In this document: piece after piece, positions 1 through 8,745 of the stretch | Layout: each line of letters begins with the position of its first letter | Position numbering within the stretch: position 1 is the first letter of the stretch | Position numbers and translations under genes: made by a program | NCBI GenBank assembly: GCA_024275415.1 | Contig: JAJRZD010000108.1 | Location: 1 to 8,745 of the forward strand | Direction of reading: 5' to 3' | Source: an archaeon | Lineage (GTDB): Archaea > Asgardarchaeota > Thorarchaeia > Thorarchaeales > Thorarchaeaceae | DNA: 8,745 nucleotides | Notes under the pieces: model-generated | The model's input: only the letters and a program-made list of their open reading frames with translations | Database searches by the model: none | Told to the model about the DNA's origin: nothing

Positions 1-1728
1 ATCAGGGTCGTTTGCCTTTGTACCAATCTCGTATTCTACCAGATTCGTTAGGCCATCATTGTCAAGATCAGCACCTGCATCGTCCAAAAGCGGATTAAGA
101 GAGTTGTCCACCTCCCAACCATCAGGCATCGAGTCAGAATCTGTATCATTGCTCAATCTATCTGTCCCATATTCTAGTTCTTGATAATCGAGAATTCCAT
201 CATTATCTGAATCACCAGGATCACGAGTAATAAAAAGAAAAGCATCCTCATTTCCGTTTAGATGCGGATACTGAGCATTGCGAATCAAGTAATCTGGGGA
301 ATATGTATTACCTGCAATGTGAACAACGCCCTGCGATCCACAACTTACCGCCCGCGCAATATCAGTCATGTTCCCTCCAAATACTATCGAGAATTCAATG
401 TTCAGAGTTTTATCGTCCAACTCGATAATGAAAGCATCAGTGCCATTGATGACAGTTTGTATCGGGTTATAAACAAGGGGGAAATCTGCAGAAGAGGTAG
501 AGCCGCATACAAATACGCTATTTTCATCATTTACTCTTACATCGAGTATCTGGTCATCATCCATTCCTCCAAGAAATCTTGACCGGATAATTGTTTTGCT
601 AGTCGTGTTCAATCTGACTACAAATCCGTCTGATGTGCCTCCTCCCCAACCATCTAATTGCAGGGGAATTGTTGGAAAATCTGACGATTGGGACCGACCA
701 ACGATATACAGATCATCCGCTGAATTCAGAGATATGCCCAAACCTATGTCGTCATAACCGCCTCCTAAATATGTAGAAAAAAGAGAGTTATTGCCGGTTG
801 AGGATAATTCGAAAACAAATGCATCAGTATAGCCACCAAGTACAGAATCTAGTGAATTGACACTAGGAAAATCTGAGGAGTATGTATGCCCAGTAATATA
901 TGTAGTCCCTGAAGAACTAATGGAAATCGCTAGTCCCTCATCCCAGTTAGAGCCTCCTACATACGTTGAGAATATAATTGAATTTGCACCAAGACTTAGT
1001 CCTGTGACAAAACAATCCGCTTCTCCGTTGAACGAATAATCAAAAGCCTCTACGGTTGGAAAGTCCACTGAATCGGTATATCCTGTCAAGTATACGTTAT
1101 TATTAGCATCAAGCGCGATATCGTACGCCCTCTCATTTCCAGTGCCGCCAAAATAAGTGGAGTACACTATCGCTCCCGAAGCATTCAGCTTGGTTATGAA
1201 GCAATCCTGTACACCATCAAGTATGCTGTCCATAGCATTTAATGTTGGAAAATCAGCTGATGAGGTGAAGCCAGTAATGTATGCGAATCCGTATTCATCA
1301 ATAACTATGGATTCGCCCCATTCGTTACCAGAACCGCCCAATAGGATGGAATATAGTAATTCTCCATTAGGAGACCACTTTGTGACGAAAGCATCAAAGA
1401 GCCCTCCCATAAACGGATTGCCACCCGTCACAGGAAAATCCTCCGACATAGTGAATCCGGTTGTATATATATTGCCTAGTTGATCAATCTCAATTGCTCT
1501 CATTTCTTCTAGGCTATTTCCACCAATATATGTTGATGCTATGACAGGAGAGTTAGAGTCGAGTGTCGAGTTGGAGGGTTTATAACATTTCAATTCCTGC
1601 TTTTGCGTGTGTATCGTGGCGGTTATTGGGGCTGCGAGAATCAGGTACTGACATATGATTCCTAACGTTAATAGAATGAATAATGCTTTAACGCGTGAAT
1701 CCATGTCTTGGGCATCTCCTACGTGCAT
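1..1728 (-). CDS. Secreted SBBP-type beta-propeller protein (7 repeats) with C-terminal DxDxDG Ca-binding repeats; 3'-partial, continues past position 1
   Basis: Hand translation shows an uninterrupted frame from ATG 1728 (or ATG 1704, preceded by SD-like GGAGAT) to position 1. It has a hydrophobic N-terminus (MDSRVKALFILLTLGIICQYLILAAP). Seven repeats of type STY[ILFV]GG..D/E...I.ID..G..YITG.T.S.DFP...DAF[VI] follow, then DSDNDGILDYQE, DTDSDSMPDGWE and DLDNDGLTNLVE. The ORF track omits it because no stop lies in the window. Confidence 0.92.
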   Translation of the reverse strand, partial: MHVGDAQDMDSRVKALFILLTLGIICQYLILAAPITATIHTQKQELKCYKPSNSTLDSNSPVIASTYIGGNSLEEMRAIEIDQLGNIYTTGFTMSEDFPVTGGNPFMGGLFDAFVTKWSPNGELLYSILLGGSGNEWGESIVIDEYGFAYITGFTSSADFPTLNAMDSILDGVQDCFITKLNASGAIVYSTYFGGTGNERAYDIALDANNNVYLTGYTDSVDFPTVEAFDYSFNGEADCFVTGLSLGANSIIFSTYVGGSNWDEGLAISISSSGTTYITGHTYSSDFPSVNSLDSVLGGYTDAFVFELSSTGNNSLFSTYLGGGYDDIGLGISLNSADDLYIVGRSQSSDFPTIPLQLDGWGGGTSDGFVVRLNTTSKTIIRSRFLGGMDDDQILDVRVNDENSVFVCGSTSSADFPLVYNPIQTVINGTDAFIIELDDKTLNIEFSIVFGGNMTDIARAVSCGSQGVVHIAGNTYSPDYLIRNAQYPHLNGNEDAFLFITRDPGDSDNDGILDYQELEYGTDRLSNDTDSDSMPDGWEVDNSLNPLLDDAGADLDNDGLTNLVEYEIGTKANDPD

Positions 1729-1744
1729 GATATTGCGGGGTTTG

Positions 1745-1760
1745 AAATTAAGGTTTGTTT
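1745..1760 (-). promoter_or_regulatory. Putative archaeal BRE/TATA promoter of the SBBP gene
   Basis: Minus strand reads AAACAAACCTTAATTT: a purine-rich BRE-like run then a TTAATTT box, 17-23 nt upstream of ATG 1728 and 41-47 nt upstream of ATG 1704. Confidence 0.4.
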
Positions 1761-1788
1761 TGTGAACTGTCAAATGTGGCCATTGGAA

Positions 1789-3276
1789 TCATCCCTCAAT
1801 TGTTATGCCCAAATCTCCATAGATTCTACAATGTGTTCCAACTGACGGATATAAAGTGGATGCATATGACCTCGCAGCATTCACACTGTAACCCCAGTCT
1901 AACGCCTCCCAGAATTTTATGGTAAATTCACTTGAATAACTTCCAGGCATTGAATCGTCGAATCCGACAAATGCATTGGCGTAAAAGACTTCATCACCCA
2001 TAGATATAGACCTGCTTTTCCACACGAATTGATATCCGAGACTATTCGTCTGTGTTGTAATTATGCTTCCACTAAAACAGTGAAGCAAATACGTTAGATA
2101 TCTTGATGGAGCCTCGTAAATCTCATAGGGGTACACTCTGTTGGTGTTCACATCAATCTTGATATAATTGTATGTGGTGTCAAAAGATCCATGACCAACT
2201 GAAAATGCAACGTAAGAGCATACAGCGCTTTTCCAAGCAGATTCGGTTAATGGTGGGTTTCGCTCTCCGACATTATCAAAGTGATTCCGCAACACTCCAC
2301 ATACATATTCCCAAGCTTTATACCCTGCTCCAATCCCTTCTGAAGTACCTTCAGCATAATCTTGCATGATGGCTTGAGCTTCGTAATAAATTAGATACGG
2401 ATCACGATGGACTATTTCTCCTGTTTCAGTGCTTACCCAGTATTCAGCAATATCTGAACTTATATGCCATGCAAGTTTGTGCTTCTCACAATTGACTGAA
2501 ATCCATTCCAATGATGGCAGAATCTCATGTGATACAGATTGATTGAAATGATTTGCTCTTATTATTCGAATCGATTCCAATGCATCAACACATATTCTTC
2601 TATTTTCGCTAACTTCATTCCATCTAAAGGAGAAACCAGTAATTGCACCACTCATGCTATTAACTTGAACTTGGATAAAATCATCTCTGACAAGTATGCC
2701 ATCGACAACATGATTCCATTTTACAATCATTCCAAATTGATTATCTTCGACACTTTCAAGAACAGCATCTGTAGGGATGGAGGAATATTTCTCCACAAAA
2801 TGAAGTGCATCGGATACAGCCATTGATTTGCTGATTCCTACTTTTTGGTTTTCAACATACGCAGAATGTCTTCTGGTGTCTACGTAATTGATAAGATTCT
2901 GCGTTTCGACATCAATCTCTACTAAAATCATATGATTCTCTTTTGAAGACCAATCGAAATGCAGTATCTGAGAGCCTGATTTTTCATCTACCTGCATGTG
3001 AACTTGCTTCAATATAAGATTCGAGTTTGGTTGAGCAATCTCCCATGCCTTCTCTACTAGAACCATGATAGAATCATCTGGAGCTATGCCATAACTAGAG
3101 ATAATAGTGATAATATCATTATGAATGGTTCCTTTGTATGTCATCTTTGTGCTAGGGTTTTCCATTGGAAAAATCATAGAGAAGGCTAAAAGTCCTATCA
3201 AACAAATCCAAAAAGCTTTTTGCCTTTTGATACATAATAAATGGTTGACACCAATCATCGAATACCACCTAACCAC
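1789..3276 (-). CDS. Secreted/membrane-anchored protein: YcdB/YcdC- or PepSY-like pro-region plus C-terminal caspase/gingipain-like (clan CD) His-Cys peptidase domain
   Basis: 495-aa ORF; ATG 3258 preceded by AGGTGG is the likelier start. N-terminal hydrophobic segment (AFWICLIGLLAFSMIFP). Middle has W.H.VDGI.V..DFI.VQVN..SG.I.GF and LAW...YWVS.ETGEIV motifs. C-terminus has VAFSVGH362G, YLTYLLHC400FSG, AFVGF...F...FWEAL..GYSV.AA and RIYGD. Fold assignment is by motif recognition only. Confidence 0.8.
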   Translation of the reverse strand: MVRWYSMIGVNHLLCIKRQKAFWICLIGLLAFSMIFPMENPSTKMTYKGTIHNDIITIISSYGIAPDDSIMVLVEKAWEIAQPNSNLILKQVHMQVDEKSGSQILHFDWSSKENHMILVEIDVETQNLINYVDTRRHSAYVENQKVGISKSMAVSDALHFVEKYSSIPTDAVLESVEDNQFGMIVKWNHVVDGILVRDDFIQVQVNSMSGAITGFSFRWNEVSENRRICVDALESIRIIRANHFNQSVSHEILPSLEWISVNCEKHKLAWHISSDIAEYWVSTETGEIVHRDPYLIYYEAQAIMQDYAEGTSEGIGAGYKAWEYVCGVLRNHFDNVGERNPPLTESAWKSAVCSYVAFSVGHGSFDTTYNYIKIDVNTNRVYPYEIYEAPSRYLTYLLHCFSGSIITTQTNSLGYQFVWKSRSISMGDEVFYANAFVGFDDSMPGSYSSEFTIKFWEALDWGYSVNAARSYASTLYPSVGTHCRIYGDLGITIEG

Positions 3277-4504: not shown

Positions 4505-4871
4505 CTAGCTCCATCCATATCCAAGAGCTGTAAACGGTCATGTGAGAAACCTCGTTGGGCTTCATATACTGATTTCTAAAATGGAGTCACGAGGCCGCCC
4601 TGACACATGTCCATGCACCTCACAGACTCACCCCAGTGCCAGTTCTATGAAGGCAATTTGACCGAGATACGGAGGTCTTGTTCTTCTCCCATCCTTTGTC
4701 CCAGATACTCTTTGAGGGACTGATAGACGTTTCTGCGAGTACAACATGCTGGTGTCTAAGATTGTACAACTTGCAATGAACGATTTGGAAAAAGACCTTC
4801 AGCCACACAAAAACTGAGTGGATGTCTTTCCCAGCAACGACAGTCAGGATATCTGAACTAATTAGGAAAAA

Positions 4872-4946
4872 TGGGGCCCAGGGGGGGAATCGAACCCCCG
4901 TCAAGAGAGCCACAATCTCTTATGCTGCCGTTACACCACCTAGGCC
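4872..4946 (-). tRNA. tRNA-His: tRNA-His (anticodon GTG), intronless, G-1 and CCA genomically encoded
   Basis: Full cloverleaf: G-1, acceptor GCCTAGG/CCTGGGC, discriminator C, CCA; D arm GTGT/GCAT; anticodon arm AGAGA-TTGTGGC-TCTCT; T arm GGGGG-TTCGATT-CCCCC. Followed by TTTTT on the coding strand. Confidence 0.98.
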
Positions 4947-5297
4947 ATTTTTTGTCGTTGATGTGTCGGCGATGGCAGGCACACCAATTTTGGCTTATTA
5001 GCTTATCCGTAGGAACGAGAGGGGGAGGTGATGACACCTCTGAGCCGTTGGGATTATTCGCACAACTATGCAATAGACCACTATCAGATTGGATGTGATG
5101 GTGCATCATGGTTGTGTCGATTTGAAGTTTGTGGGATTGGCATTTATAGGTCAGGGCTGGTGGTCTATGAAGTCCAATAGACAAGGAGGGGGGGACAGTG
5201 TTAGATATCACCAGCGAGGGCATTCCACATCTGGTCAGGTGTATTCCGTCCTATATCAAGAGATGGAGTAGACTTCAATCTGACGAAAATGCAGAAG

Positions 5298-7538
5298 TCA
5301 GATTCTGGTGAATTCTGTATTGAGCAGTGATTTGAGAACGATTTGTGTTGCAATGATGTCATCATGTGCATATTCAAGGATTTTATCCCATTCAGGCTCG
5401 ATTCCGGTTTGTTTGTAAATTGATATCAGCATACCTACTTGAAAGCCATTTATCGTGGGATCGGACCACTCAAAGCCAAAGTGGCGTGCTATAGCCTTCA
5501 AACCACCTTTCGGAGCTCCGATGACACGGGTTGCCACTAAACGCCCCAAATCGATTTCATGCTTGAAAATGGGGGGAATAGGTATCCCATAGCGTTTTGC
5601 TTGATTGATCAGTACTCTTTGGTCAAATCTGTTACCGCTATAACTAACCAAGATGCTACGTGGGTTCTTTTGTAGATAATTGAAGAACTTCCTGACTAGC
5701 TCTGCTTCATCATCTTTCTCAAAGATTTGTTCTACCGAAGAGGTTGTTGGATTCCAATAGCTCACACATAATGCGCTTTTCCAATGAAGGTCTGTTTCTA
5801 TATCGTAGACGATATTTTTTTCTGGATGAAGTTTTTTCCACCGGGGGTCATGTAGTCGATAAATCCTATTTTCTTGTAGTGCTTTTCTACATAGAACCCA
5901 AAATCGAGCCAAATAGGTGCTTACACCTTGAATGCGTTTCATCTTGGGGATATTTGATTCTGTTATGTGATCTAGGCTCACTATTCCCAGCTCTTCTAAT
6001 TGTTTAGCACGTTTCGCACCTATTTTTGGCAGCTTGCGAAGTGGACTCAAAGAGAACTCGAAATCTGAGTGTGTTGTATTCTGAACGGTGTGGGTTCTCG
6101 TGATTCGAGGAACAGAAGAAAGTTGGACTGAAGTTTGTCTTGTTGTGTGTTGGGTACGGACACGACTTGGCTTTGGCCAAACAATTCTATCATATATGTT
6201 CAATATCCCTTCAGGCAGTGGTTCAGTATTGGCGAGATATTCGTCAGCAACAATTATCGTTTCGTCATCAATAAAGAGATTCTTCAGGTACATGCAGTGG
6301 AATAAGGGAGAGATATCAATTTCATCTAGTTTGTTCAATGTAAGCCATAGATTGCTAAGGGATTTACAGGATTTCAAAGGAGTAAGGTCTATCCTATTGA
6401 TTTTGTTTGCAAAAAGAAACAAGTTCTTCAGTCTACGGCAGTTCTGGAGAGGAGCAAGGTCTAATTTTGTGATACTATTATAGCTTAAATCAAGTTTCTC
6501 CAAGAACCTATTCGTACGCAAAGGTGACAGGTCGATACTACGTAATTGATTATAGTTCAAGTTTATTTCAGTAAGACGGGGCACCTTTTGAAGAGGCGAG
6601 AGGTCAACGCTCGTGGTATCACAATAACTCAAATCGAAAGTTGTATCTTTCACAGAGAAATGGTATTTTCTGACCCCATACTGAGTGTCAAAGAAGACAG
6701 TTACATACTGCACCTTACGACCACGGGAATGAAACTTTTTATCGTAATGCTTGGAGCGATTCAGAATAACCTCACACCTATGGTCAGAAACCTTTGCGGT
6801 TGCCATAATTGCATCTAATCGTTTTTTTAGACCCGAGTCTGTTTTGAGGAGTGTGTTCTTGTCAAAGACTAACTGTAACTGGATTTTTTCTGCCGATAAG
6901 AAATGAGTGATATCAATGGACTTTATCTGGTTGCCATCGATAGAGATTTGGGTTTTGAACGTTCTAGTATGCAAAGTGGATAGTGGACTCAAATCTATAG
7001 TATGCAGTTGATTATTACTCAAATCCAATGTGTCCAGTCCCATACATGACGATAGAGGGCTGAGGTCAATGGTACTCAGATTGTTTCTGTCAAGATACAG
7101 ACTTGATAGTTTCTGGCATCCTTGGAGAGGAGAGAGATTGATTTCTTGAAGTCGATTGTTTCCTAAATACAGAAGGTCAAGATCAGAACAGTGATACAGG
7201 GGATCCAAGTCTATCTTTCGAATCCTGTTATTGGTAAGATACAACTTCTGCAGAGATCGATTATGTTGCAAGGGATCTAAATTAACAGATTCGAGATTAT
7301 TTCCGGTCAGGTACAATATTTGTAATTGTGAGCAACTACTCAGAGGAGAAAGGTCGATTGTATCAAGACTATTAGAGCCAAGCAAAAGGTGAGTTAGACC
7401 CCTACAGCTTGCTAGTGGGGACAGGTCAATTGTGCGGAGTTGCTGACAAGACAAATCAATAGATGTGACTGACGTATCTATCTCGATTTGTTTTGATGTG
7501 CCCTCAGTATCGACATATGAAAGTGTGATCGAATCCAA
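5298..7538 (-). CDS. LRR-LRR-HhH-YprB/RNase_H_2 (DEDD 3'-5' exonuclease-like) fusion protein, about 746 aa
   Basis: Part of the 869-aa ORF (numbering from the track ORF). Likely start is TTG 7538 (residue 124), 7 nt after a GGGGGA SD and at the start of an LRR N-cap. 24-aa LRRs (L.L..N.L..IDLSPL..C..L): about 8 at aa 147-340 and 5 plus a cap at aa 422-555. HhH pair LRKLPKIG...IQGVS at aa 622-680. Exonuclease motifs YD702IE704T, SYSGNRFD762 and Y846AHDD850. Confidence 0.9.
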   Translation of the reverse strand: MDSITLSYVDTEGTSKQIEIDTSVTSIDLSCQQLRTIDLSPLASCRGLTHLLLGSNSLDTIDLSPLSSCSQLQILYLTGNNLESVNLDPLQHNRSLQKLYLTNNRIRKIDLDPLYHCSDLDLLYLGNNRLQEINLSPLQGCQKLSSLYLDRNNLSTIDLSPLSSCMGLDTLDLSNNQLHTIDLSPLSTLHTRTFKTQISIDGNQIKSIDITHFLSAEKIQLQLVFDKNTLLKTDSGLKKRLDAIMATAKVSDHRCEVILNRSKHYDKKFHSRGRKVQYVTVFFDTQYGVRKYHFSVKDTTFDLSYCDTTSVDLSPLQKVPRLTEINLNYNQLRSIDLSPLRTNRFLEKLDLSYNSITKLDLAPLQNCRRLKNLFLFANKINRIDLTPLKSCKSLSNLWLTLNKLDEIDISPLFHCMYLKNLFIDDETIIVADEYLANTEPLPEGILNIYDRIVWPKPSRVRTQHTTRQTSVQLSSVPRITRTHTVQNTTHSDFEFSLSPLRKLPKIGAKRAKQLEELGIVSLDHITESNIPKMKRIQGVSTYLARFWVLCRKALQENRIYRLHDPRWKKLHPEKNIVYDIETDLHWKSALCVSYWNPTTSSVEQIFEKDDEAELVRKFFNYLQKNPRSILVSYSGNRFDQRVLINQAKRYGIPIPPIFKHEIDLGRLVATRVIGAPKGGLKAIARHFGFEWSDPTINGFQVGMLISIYKQTGIEPEWDKILEYAHDDIIATQIVLKSLLNTEFTRI

Positions 7539-7599
7539 CTTGTAAATCCCCCATTCTAATAGATAATTCGACCGAGATACAAACTGTGAACAATCTAGA

Positions 7600-7607
7600 A
7601 ATAAAAG
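7600..7607 (-). promoter_or_regulatory. Possible TATA box for the LRR-nuclease gene
   Basis: Minus strand CTTTTATT about 60-70 nt upstream of TTG 7538; supports the shorter start but is a weak match. Confidence 0.3.
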
Positions 7608-7939
7608 TAATTCTGGTAGAAAGTAACTGTGTGGGCCGTTTCTGGTGTGAAGCCAGATTGAGATGTGATAAACCATCCCGTTATAATTCCCAATAAGAAG
7701 ACGAGTTATAGAAGTGTCAGCTCTACTCATCCAGATGTTATTGTACATTGTCCAAGATCTAGCAATAGGGTGTTTTGTCTTTGATCCTGTTTCGACTAAA
7801 CACTCTACTGATTCAGAGAATCTAGACCGATTCTCACAGTGATCAAAATCAAGTGCCACTGAGGATGAATGGATATCACCTGCAATAGGCACAACAAGTC
7901 GAAACATATATTGGTTAACCTAAAAATGTAAAGGATTTC

Positions 7940-7951
7940 TACTACATAGTA
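7940..7951. promoter_or_regulatory. Palindromic operator candidate overlapping the antitoxin start
   Basis: TACTA-CA-TAGTA perfect inverted repeat abutting ATG 7951, a position typical of TA autorepression operators. A second imperfect palindrome (7904-7929, 10 of 13 pairs, core GGTTAACC) covers the expected TATA region. Confidence 0.45.
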
Positions 7952-8168
7952 TGATAGTTGGTAAGGTAAGAAGGGACAGGTTGTCATCCCAAAGATAATC
8001 CGAGAAAAACTGAAGATAAGGGCTGGGGACACGGTCATTTTCAAGATAACAGGCGGAAAAGTGTATCTTGAAATAAGCAGAGAACAAATGAAAGATATCC
8101 TGAAAGCGGGACGGCCCGTTACCCAAAGTGTTGACTTCCAAAGAGATTTGCGGTCTGAGTGGACTTGA
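7951..8168 (+). pseudogene. vapB: AbrB/MazE/SpoVT-family antitoxin (VapB-like), frameshifted near the 5' end
   Basis: ATG 7951 reads MIVGKVRRDRLSSQR* in one frame. The frame from 7965 reads GKKGQVVIPKIIREKLKIRAGDTVIFKITGGKVYLEISREQMKDILKAGRPVTQSVDFQRDLRSEWT*, a classic AbrB fold, and is blocked upstream by TAA 7962. Its stop overlaps the PIN gene start. Confidence 0.85.
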
Positions 8169-8605
8169 AAGGTGTGGAGGGTGAGCCACGGTCGACCACA
8201 ATAAAAATCGATCTTGATACGAACATCTTCATTGCTGTCAAAAACCAAGAGGCAGAACACGAGTTCTGTGAGCGAATATTGGATGCTATTGACATGGGAA
8301 GAATTGAGGCTATTGTGTCTACAATTGTTGTTGCAGAGGTTATAGTGGGATTCTATTCAAACAATGAAGAGCTCGACGCCGATCGATTTAGTGACCACAG
8401 CCTCCTAAAATACAACATTCAACCTGTGACTCTTGAGATTGCAGATCTGGGCGCCAAGATTCGAGCAACAGGACTCAGGTTACCGGATGCGCTCATAGTA
8501 GCAACGGCGATCCAAACACAATCCTCACTAATCACCATGGATGATAGTGTCAGATATCCCCATCTTGAAATCGTCACACCTGAGAGATTTATTGATCGCC
8601 TATGA
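8159..8605 (+). CDS. vapC: PIN-domain (VapC-like) ribonuclease toxin
   Basis: All four conserved acidic positions are present: IDLDTNIFI, VVAEV, LPDALIVATA, LITMD. Start is GTG 8159 or TTG 8165; the latter gives a TTGA overlap with the antitoxin stop. Confidence 0.93.
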   Translation: MDLKGVEGEPRSTTIKIDLDTNIFIAVKNQEAEHEFCERILDAIDMGRIEAIVSTIVVAEVIVGFYSNNEELDADRFSDHSLLKYNIQPVTLEIADLGAKIRATGLRLPDALIVATAIQTQSSLITMDDSVRYPHLEIVTPERFIDRL

Positions 8606-8744
8606 TTATCATCACTTCTTTTTTGCACCAAGTTGTTATTACAATACGTCCCTTCGCGTCGAAAAATGCACTCATAGAAAAGTCCGCAGTTGTGAATTGG
8701 TTTGATTTGAAAAACGGCAATGGTTTCAGGATTCGGGCACGATG
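8589..8744 (-). CDS. Possible 3' end of a convergent gene entering from the right edge
   Basis: Open frame HRARILKPLPFFKSNQFTTADFSMSAFFDAKGRIVITTWCKKEVMIIIGDQ* looks protein-like and overlaps the vapC 3' end by 17 nt. No family recognised. Confidence 0.3.
   Translation of the reverse strand, partial: HRARILKPLPFFKSNQFTTADFSMSAFFDAKGRIVITTWCKKEVMIIIGDQ
8617..8624 (+). terminator. T-rich archaeal terminator candidate after vapC
   Basis: T-rich tract (TCTTTTTT) about 12 nt after the stop. Confidence 0.4.
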
Positions 8745-8745
8745 C

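Follow-up and report, generated by a model that had tools for sequence, protein, structure and literature searches.

Locus and domain architecture

The window, that is, the whole stretch of DNA analysed here, is contig C92 (8745 bp) of a Thorarchaeaceae metagenome-assembled genome (MAG) of 3.5 Mb in 127 contigs, which is 92.9% complete and 4.5% contaminated. Its longest open reading frame (ORF), encoding protein P0001, joins leucine-rich repeats (LRRs) to a nuclease. The order of parts, from the N-terminus, is LRR unit A, a spacer, LRR unit B, a linker, a DNA-binding domain of two helix-hairpin-helix motifs, (HhH)2, and a DEDDy exonuclease. A fusion of this kind had been read from the letters alone in a first-pass annotation of the sequence, and it is real on contig C92. 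The gene shares a strain-specific, low-GC insertion beside tRNA-His with a vapBC toxin-antitoxin pair. The coordinates of all features are collected in Table 1.

Table 1. Features of the LRR-nuclease gene and its surroundings; positions are those of the window and residues those of P0001. MPE, metallophosphoesterase; AF2, AlphaFold2; pLDDT, predicted local distance difference test
Feature	Coordinates	Strand	Remarks
Longest ORF, P0001, 869 aa	5298..7907	minus	stop codon 5298-5300
TTG codon, residue 124, candidate start	7536..7538	minus	yields M-DSITLSY...
Doubtful 5' extension, residues 1-123	7539..7907	minus	no homolog; pLDDT <50
LRR unit A, residues 124-354	6846..7538	minus	N-terminal cap, 8 repeats, degenerate C-terminal cap
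Inter-unit spacer, residues 355-420	6648..6845	minus	mostly pLDDT <50
LRR unit B, residues 421-575	6183..6647	minus	own N-terminal cap, 5 repeats, C-terminal cap ending RIVW
T/Q/R-rich low-complexity linker, residues 576-612	6072..6182	minus	junction of LRR family and nuclease family lies within
(HhH)2 DNA-binding domain, residues 613-680	5868..6071	minus	homology to MPE-HhH-exonuclease relatives from about 613
PF13482 DEDDy 3'-5' exonuclease domain, residues 698-862	5322..5816	minus	Pfam, AF2
Catalytic residues D702/E704; D762; D786; Y846/D850	5796-5804; 5622-5624; 5550-5552; 5358-5372	minus	
Strain-specific low-GC insertion, ~3.8 kb	5012..8745		extends ~115 nt past the window into contig C20
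tRNA-His (GTG)	4872..4945	minus	left anchor of the insertion
vapB (AbrB/MazE-type antitoxin)	7951..8168	plus	PF04014, E 1.5e-9; divergent from the LRR-nuclease gene
vapC (PIN-domain toxin)	8159..8605	plus	PF01850, E 4e-17

The gene had been placed at 5298-7538 in the first-pass annotation. The frame is uninterrupted over that interval, as claimed, but its extent was understated, the longest ORF reaching 7907. Position 7538 opens a TTG codon, from which a protein of 746 aa would be read, and an A/T-rich, TATA-like stretch lies 19-30 nt upstream of it. The 746-aa reading is at least as likely as the 869-aa reading from ATG 7907, for three reasons. The alignment of P0001 to LRR paralogs from its own genome starts at residues 122-124, these paralogs beginning 2-10 residues ahead of the same first beta-strand. 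The full-length AF2 model has a pLDDT of less than 50 over residues 1-122 and of more than 90 from about residue 130. Finally, an unrelated ORF of 103 aa on contig C37 has a C-terminal end similar to residues 29-49. Further ATG codons occur inside the 5' extension at 7748, 7730 and 7676, and the last of these is a possible alternative start, since one LRR relative (P0168) aligns from residue 117. A Pfam scan of P0001 found no NACHT, NB-ARC or STAND NTPase, no TIR domain and no transmembrane segment.

The HhH-exonuclease module

The exonuclease domain matches PF13482 (RNase_H_2) at residues 701-860 with an E-value of 5e-20 (72.5 bits against a cut-off of 22), and the secondary Pfam matches are to the exonuclease domains of family B polymerases. 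Motifs Exo I (DxE), Exo II (FD) and Exo III (Yx3D) are all intact. The four acidic residues singled out at first reading (D702, E704, D762 and D850) are indeed present, Y846 completes the DEDDy set, and D786, nearly invariant across the family, is kept as well. The match to the DNA-binding domain is weaker (HHH_5 at residues 623-672, E 3.5e-3 taken alone). Nevertheless, the N-terminal ~70 residues of a profile for the module family match the (HhH)2 domains of L32e, Hel308, Rad51 and Y-family polymerases, and the expected HhH helices are present in the AF2 model of the module. The earlier coordinates of the two domains, 6044-5868 and 5816-5322, were right and correspond to residues 622-680 and 698-862.

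In an AF2 model of the module by itself, built with 28 relatives, the pLDDT is 95.9; in the full-length model, residues 620-869 lie at 92-98. The best matches found by Foldseek in the PDB are archaeal family B DNA polymerases, by way of their proofreading domain (E 3e-5). VIA-align ranks Pyrobaculum PolB (5mdn_B) first, with a Z-score of 15.9 and a root-mean-square deviation (rmsd) of 2.7 A over 160 residues, followed by Pol epsilon and E. coli Pol II; MrfB (8un9_B) aligns with a Z-score of 12.2 and an rmsd of 3.8 A over 165 residues. The C-terminal domain thus models as the RNase H-like DEDD exonuclease that had been predicted. MrfB is matched by fold alone, being absent from the sequence-profile matches to solved structures. 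It is the only characterised PF13482 protein, a Mg2+-dependent 3'-5' DNA exonuclease that works in repair (PMC11194089), and PF13482 clusters with the PolB exonucleases (PMC3985635). On these two grounds, trimming of DNA 3' ends would be the expected chemistry of the P0001 module.

Among 1.84 billion cluster representatives, searched exhaustively with HMMER, only 276 relatives of the module were found at E <= 1e-3. The nearest are 36-44% identical and belong to proteins of about 570 aa. An MPE (calcineurin-like) domain precedes the HhH-exonuclease in 59 of the 87 relatives that are 400 aa or longer, and a few bear a Cas4/PD-(D/E)XK domain in its place. The HhH-exonuclease cassette thus normally sits behind a second nuclease domain, and in P0001 it sits behind a non-catalytic binding domain. 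P0001 has no Metallophos match in Pfam; residues 124-575 are LRRs instead. Conversely, not one of the 154 module relatives retrieved is similar to the first 600 residues of P0001 or has LRRs. A quick maximum likelihood tree (IQ-TREE, 131 modules) nests the P0001 module in a clade with P0002-P0010 (Shimodaira-Hasegawa-like approximate likelihood ratio test, SH-aLRT, 99), on a terminal branch of 0.62, the median length for the family. Because the full-length members of that clade all bear an MPE of 305-320 residues, the ancestral state was MPE-fused, and the LRRs took the place of the MPE.

The clade is at home among mobile elements. P0009 is adjoined by a D5_N primase-helicase and an integrase, P0007 adjoins ParB, P0005 lies near an integrase, an SDH protease and a HEPN protein, and P0004 lies near DUF87 and DUF4238 proteins. 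The module is also borne by 17 haloarchaeal plasmids, among them pHV4 of Haloferax volcanii (NC_013966.1, 57789-70151; locus L048), where it is divided between two genes, HVO_RS02195 (metallophosphoesterase) and HVO_RS02190 (RNase H-like), flanked by genes for Cdc6/Cdc18, an SRAP peptidase, TnpB and a type B DNA polymerase. Within the phylum of the window's genome, the module occurs in 48 of 301 genomes, and its distribution is uneven: 24 of 28 genomes in one family and eight of 11 in another possess it, and only one of the 76 other genomes in the window's own family does, where it stands alone next to a C5 methyltransferase. The six further genomes of the same genus that were searched gave no match to the module. 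Neither a tblastn search of phage records with the module nor a search of viral contigs with P0009 gave a match.

In the two nearest MPE-HhH-exonuclease loci compared (L008:8407-8757 and L011:9704-10063), a small Cys-rich ORF of 116-119 aa (75% mutual identity) overlaps the stop codon of the nuclease gene. Its product may be a partner subunit or an inhibitor; it is absent from the window's genome. A 121-aa ORF at 4858-5223 of the window was considered as a partner and rejected, as it overlaps tRNA-His and is unrelated to the Cys-rich ORF. Also rejected was a 980-aa open frame in genome G028 that matches half the module, having neither a Pfam domain nor an LRR.

The LRR units and their Asgard relatives

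The N-terminal part of P0001 matches LRR_8 (E 6e-29) and LRR_4 (E 1e-24) in Pfam. A pattern count finds exactly 13 repeats of 24 residues each with the signature IDLSPL, eight of them within unit A (residues 160-354) and five within unit B (residues 434-553), which bears out the earlier figure of about 13. In the AF2 model, unit A has a pLDDT of 81-97 from residue 124 up to about 310 and unit B of 70-87 over residues 421-550; the stretch between them, residues 349-420, is modelled poorly, and the low-complexity residues 552-619 fall below 50. The features of the Asgard IDLSPL family, namely an N-terminal beta cap, 24-residue repeats and an RI.W cap, are found in both units, and the RI.W motif that closes unit B is the point at which stand-alone paralogs terminate. 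In register, the two units are 38% identical, and each is 44-45% identical to other members of the family. Since their mutual identity is no closer than that to others, they represent two different family members joined together rather than a recent internal duplication. Nine paralogous LRR regions in the same genome, with the same caps, show 34-45% identity, and the best database matches of the LRR part are from named Thorarchaeota and other Asgard archaea. In type, the LRR part is native to the lineage.

Among the 120 best LRR relatives, PF13482 occurs in none besides P0001, and a search of metagenome contigs with P0001 gave a single LRR relative only. Other C-terminal domains do occur among the relatives: DarT, HhH, SAP, TnpB-like, Roc GTPase and protein kinase. 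P0159 (882 aa, L049:6001-8649) couples LRRs to a DarT single-stranded DNA ADP-ribosyltransferase (PF14487, E 1e-32) and is present on seven metagenome contigs. It is followed by a convergent, overlapping gene for a macro-domain, DarG-like protein (L049:8646-9335), and a NERD gene is nearby. P0168 (683 aa, L047:6001-8052) ends in an HhH domain and lies near N6/N4 methyltransferase and MvaI/BcnI-type restriction genes. In addition, P0255 carries SAP, and P0199 carries OrfB_IS605 and Cas12f1-like TNB domains. The fusions to DarT, HhH, SAP and TnpB-like domains suggest a wider Asgard theme of LRR-effector proteins, of which P0001 may be one example.

Five LRR paralogs encoded in the window's own genome (G000, at C63:20741-22111, C110:40879-42375, C38:25678-26802, C100:50991-52817 and C14:12464-13150) have in common a C-terminal domain of ~230 aa with the motifs GGST..FD and LW.T.YG and no Pfam match. 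This appears to be an undescribed domain that has been fused repeatedly to this LRR family.

The fusion is found once

The combination of LRRs with PF13482 is seen in no other protein among the 154 module relatives and the 120 LRR relatives, and in none of the six other genomes of the genus or the 300 other genomes of the phylum. A homolog with the same architecture in related genomes, the absence of which had been named beforehand as telling against a sensor-nuclease, was therefore not found. A search of genome contigs with P0001 as a single protein returned no match, and a feature search of the ESM Atlas returned no usable one. No description of LRR plus PF13482 was found in the literature searched; the published survey of Asgard defence covers only systems known to DefenseFinder (PMC11291487).

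Genomic setting

The ends of contig C92 have 141-nt overlaps with contigs C121 and C20. In two genomes of the same genus (G002 and G005), tRNA-His and ~65 nt upstream of it are followed, after ~140-220 bp, by the gene for a 182-aa membrane protein and a long syntenic block. The ortholog of that gene in the window's genome is at C20:272-820. As tRNA-His and the membrane-protein gene are near-adjacent in these relatives, the ~3.8 kb between them in the window's genome constitute an insertion, whose only content is the LRR-nuclease gene and the divergent vapBC pair. No direct repeat of more than 10 nt flanks the insertion, and hence no attachment (att) site can be named. The P0001 gene has a GC content of 37.5-41%, and its LRR parts have a GC content at third codon positions of 39-44%; the corresponding values for the resident LRR paralogs are 44-49% and 46-57%. 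The nearest nuclease relatives lie on contigs that likewise have about 40% GC. It is probable that the fusion as a whole, with its LRRs, originated elsewhere and was acquired by transfer.

The contig itself belongs to the lineage, as shown by a genus-typical repeat of 55 nt at 4728-4784, downstream of tRNA-His. This repeat is multi-copy in the genome and the genus, recurring at 79-90% identity on ~15 other contigs and, of six genomes of the genus that were searched, in four. A short dispersed repeat is one possible identity, a conserved regulatory or terminator element another.

The vapB and vapC frames overlap by 10 nt, the gene arrangement expected of VapBC. Read from ATG 7951, vapB loses its frame at a tandem duplication of 5 nt (GGTAA GGTAA, 7960-7969), and the AbrB frame continues at 7965-8165. 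Either the antitoxin gene is broken next to an intact PIN toxin gene or the assembly is in error here.

In two genomes of the same genus, the match to tRNA-His falls into halves ~30 nt apart (L029, G005:C42, 2083-2244; L030, G001:C78, 752-860), and the ~30 nt, lacking in the window's copy, are probably a tRNA intron. To the left, two minus-strand genes of low GC encode probable secreted proteins: an SBBP beta-propeller/TSP3 repeat protein (window 1-1773) and a DUF4901 (YcdB/YcdC repeat) protein (1789-3276). The same-genus genomes have no DNA match to either gene, and the contig is thus variable in its left half as well. Elsewhere in the genome (L028, G000:C37:28000-33500), a 538-aa protein with RAMP-like features and the 103-aa ORF that resembles P0001 residues 29-49 at its C-terminal end are followed by AbrB-like and PIN-like genes, a second locus with a similar arrangement of small ORF and toxin-antitoxin pair.

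Comparison with known systems

The archaeal MPE-HhH-exonuclease family, of which P0002-P0009 come from metagenomes, is the true sister of P0001, with the same module in the same C-terminal position and an association with plasmids and integrated elements. P0001 differs in having 13 LRRs for the MPE and no downstream Cys-rich ORF. The first-pass annotation had described HhH plus RNase_H_2 as the C-terminal architecture of YprB/TM0106-type nucleases. This is correct for the TM0106 family of putative RecB-like nucleases (TIGR03491/COG2251), itself uncharacterised, whose model positions 213-460 align to residues 622-859 of P0001, the same cassette behind another N-terminal domain. P0001 scores 66.6 bits against a cut-off of 97.45 for this model and lacks its N-terminal Cas4/RecB-like PD-(D/E)XK domain. 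The description fails for YprB/MrfB (COG3359), an exonuclease plus tetratricopeptide repeat (TPR) protein without HhH (PMC3985635, PMC11194089). MrfB of Bacillus subtilis (8UN9), which acts in mitomycin C repair, does resemble P0001 in combining PF13482 with a solenoid repeat domain. However, it is a DEDDh enzyme with a C-terminal TPR and a partner helicase, MrfA (PMC11194089), whereas P0001 is of the DEDDy type (Y846), has N-terminal LRRs and (HhH)2, and has neither a TPR nor a helicase in the window. The exonuclease domains of family B polymerases (5MDN, Pyrococcus PolB 4FLT and Pol epsilon 4M8O) share the DEDDy type and superpose with Z-scores of 15-16 and an rmsd of 2.7-3.2 A over ~160 residues, but identity is only 15-20%, and P0001 has no polymerase domain.

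On the sensor side, the prokaryotic NLR/STAND proteins with nuclease effectors (Avs, bNACHT) and Toll-like receptors combine, as P0001 does, a repeat sensor and an effector in one polypeptide, from accessory, island-borne genes. In place of the central P-loop NTPase of NLR/STAND proteins, P0001 has disordered spacers at residues 355-420 and 552-619. The vapC gene and the other neighbours gave no match in PADLOC, and candidate PDC-S10 is matched solely by the MPE part of relatives P0004 and P0005. Closer to home, the LRR-DarT protein P0159 shares the Asgard LRR family of P0001, with 26% identity across 86% of the LRR region, and likewise places its LRRs N-terminal to a DNA-targeting enzyme without an NTPase. 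Its effector is an ADP-ribosyltransferase with a neighbouring candidate antidote, and none is seen in the window for the P0001 exonuclease. In the CCR4/CNOT6 deadenylase, LRRs are fused to a nuclease and dock onto CAF1 as a protein adaptor; unlike P0001, CCR4 is eukaryotic, with an EEP-fold RNA nuclease of unrelated sequence.

Weighing the explanations

We favour, at about even chances, a real, horizontally acquired, domain-swapped fusion that acts as an LRR-targeted or LRR-controlled DNA exonuclease in conflict biology. A gene serving genetic conflict, whether in defence or in warfare between mobile elements, is most likely. In favour of such a role are the accessory nature of the gene, its strain-specific islet, its toxin-antitoxin neighbour, its mobile sister clade and the example of LRR-DarT with a candidate antidote. 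Several points weigh on the other side. The fusion is a singleton, known from an assembled contig of one MAG, so that neither conservation nor co-variation stands behind a function. Its exonuclease departs from the family at seven of 28 highly conserved positions (W713L, G716S and N847A among them), against a family median of three, and ranks 118 of 131. The adjacent vapB frameshift hints at decay, and the islet holds no integrase and no defence gene apart from vapBC. Not one family of PADLOC-DB 2.0 matches P0001 at E <= 0.01. The full-length AF2 model has a predicted template modelling (pTM) score of 0.46 and shows the domains as beads on a string, with no confident interdomain packing. Finally, the Cdc6/PolB/SRAP context in haloarchaea and the presence of the module in 24 of 28 genomes of one family fit replication or repair equally well, and the islet with vapBC and the mobile-borne relatives fit a mobile-element origin as well as they fit conflict biology.

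Much of this evidence bears on a neutral or decaying accident, in which deletions within a degrading integrated element joined three once separate genes, two for LRR proteins and one for a mobile-element nuclease that had been truncated, into a single frame that yields little or no product and has no selected function. Such an outcome would account for a singleton in which both LRR units keep their own caps, unit B ends like the stand-alone paralogs and low-complexity spacers follow; the relic of another small ORF at the 5' end, the frame-shifted vapB, the altered exonuclease positions and the want of an integrase point the same way. Yet an open frame of 746-869 codons at 40% GC is very unlikely to last without selection or a very recent origin, none of the six acidic and tyrosine residues that are catalytic or invariant has been lost, the LRR units and the nuclease module all model at high confidence, and the terminal branch is of median length. 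An accident of this kind is accordingly somewhat improbable, if by no means to be neglected. It is doubtful, too, that P0001 is an accessory nuclease of replication or repair, in which the LRRs, like that of CCR4 on CAF1, dock an exonuclease that trims DNA ends onto a replication or repair complex of the host or of a plasmid, with no part in immunity. The repair function of MrfB, its sole characterised relative (PMC11194089), the company of Cdc6, PolB and SRAP genes and the housekeeping-like frequency of the module in one Asgard family speak for it. The module, though, was not found in the six other same-genus genomes searched and is present in only one of 76 others of the family, the gene occupies a strain-specific, low-GC islet with a toxin-antitoxin pair and no adjacent repair genes, and its nearest relatives are on integrative elements.

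A chimera, with LRR and nuclease parts from different metagenome molecules joined in frame by the assembler, is suggested by the fragmentation and contamination of the MAG and by a GC content and tetranucleotide correlation of the contig below those of its peers. It is very improbable, given that 5005-7640 has no sequence in common with any other contig of the genome at which a mis-join might occur, that GC is uniform (37.5-43.5%) over all segments of the P0001 ORF, that both junctions are in frame and that synteny with same-genus genomes anchors the contig at either end. There remains a bolder version of the conflict role, an NTPase-free immune sensor-effector whose LRRs recognise a viral or plasmid protein directly and thereby unleash the exonuclease on invader DNA or deliver it there, as one of an Asgard-wide class of LRR-effectors (DarT with DarG-like, TnpB-like, HhH and SAP). 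This we consider unlikely. The sensor-nuclease idea of the first-pass annotation is a reasonable one, but its terms "ligand-gated" and "antiviral" run ahead of the evidence, there being no NTPase switch, no PADLOC match and no confident domain packing in the full-length model.

A possible mechanism

For the LRR-targeted or LRR-controlled exonuclease that we favour, the following scheme can be drawn, in which DNA as the substrate, a protein as the LRR ligand and the role in conflict are all inferred. The C-terminal 257 residues are the (HhH)2-DEDDy module typical of a nuclease family that is rare in archaea and resides on plasmids and integrated elements, the MPE having been replaced by two separately capped Asgard-type LRR solenoids with disordered linkers of ~66-70 residues. 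The (HhH)2 domain would bind DNA without sequence preference and feed a 3' end into the exonuclease site, where a two-metal site like that of the family B polymerase proofreading domain would trim DNA in the 3'-5' direction. The LRRs would not touch DNA. Rather, they would bind a protein, and this protein may recruit or release the nuclease at a protein-marked target, such as the replication or terminal protein of an invader. Any control would be by direct binding, as there is no NTPase switch. The gene came with the vapBC pair in the 3.8-kb low-GC islet beside tRNA-His.

Implications

At the core of eukaryotic innate immunity, recognition by LRRs is coupled to an effector, and the prokaryotic sensor-effectors considered here (Avs, bNACHT) put a STAND NTPase between sensor and effector. 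P0001 offers a natural Asgard case in which an LRR array stands in place of the second nuclease domain of a mobile-element exonuclease. It also draws attention to the uncharacterised MPE-HhH-exonuclease family, which haloarchaea, the genetically tractable Haloferax volcanii among them, carry on plasmids. Together with fusions of the LRR-DarT type, P0001 provides a testable route to the ligands of the abundant Asgard LRR proteins and to the question of whether direct wiring of LRR to effector predates eukaryotes. If true, the sensor-effector reading would place a Toll-like, direct LRR-effector logic in the closest archaeal relatives of eukaryotes.

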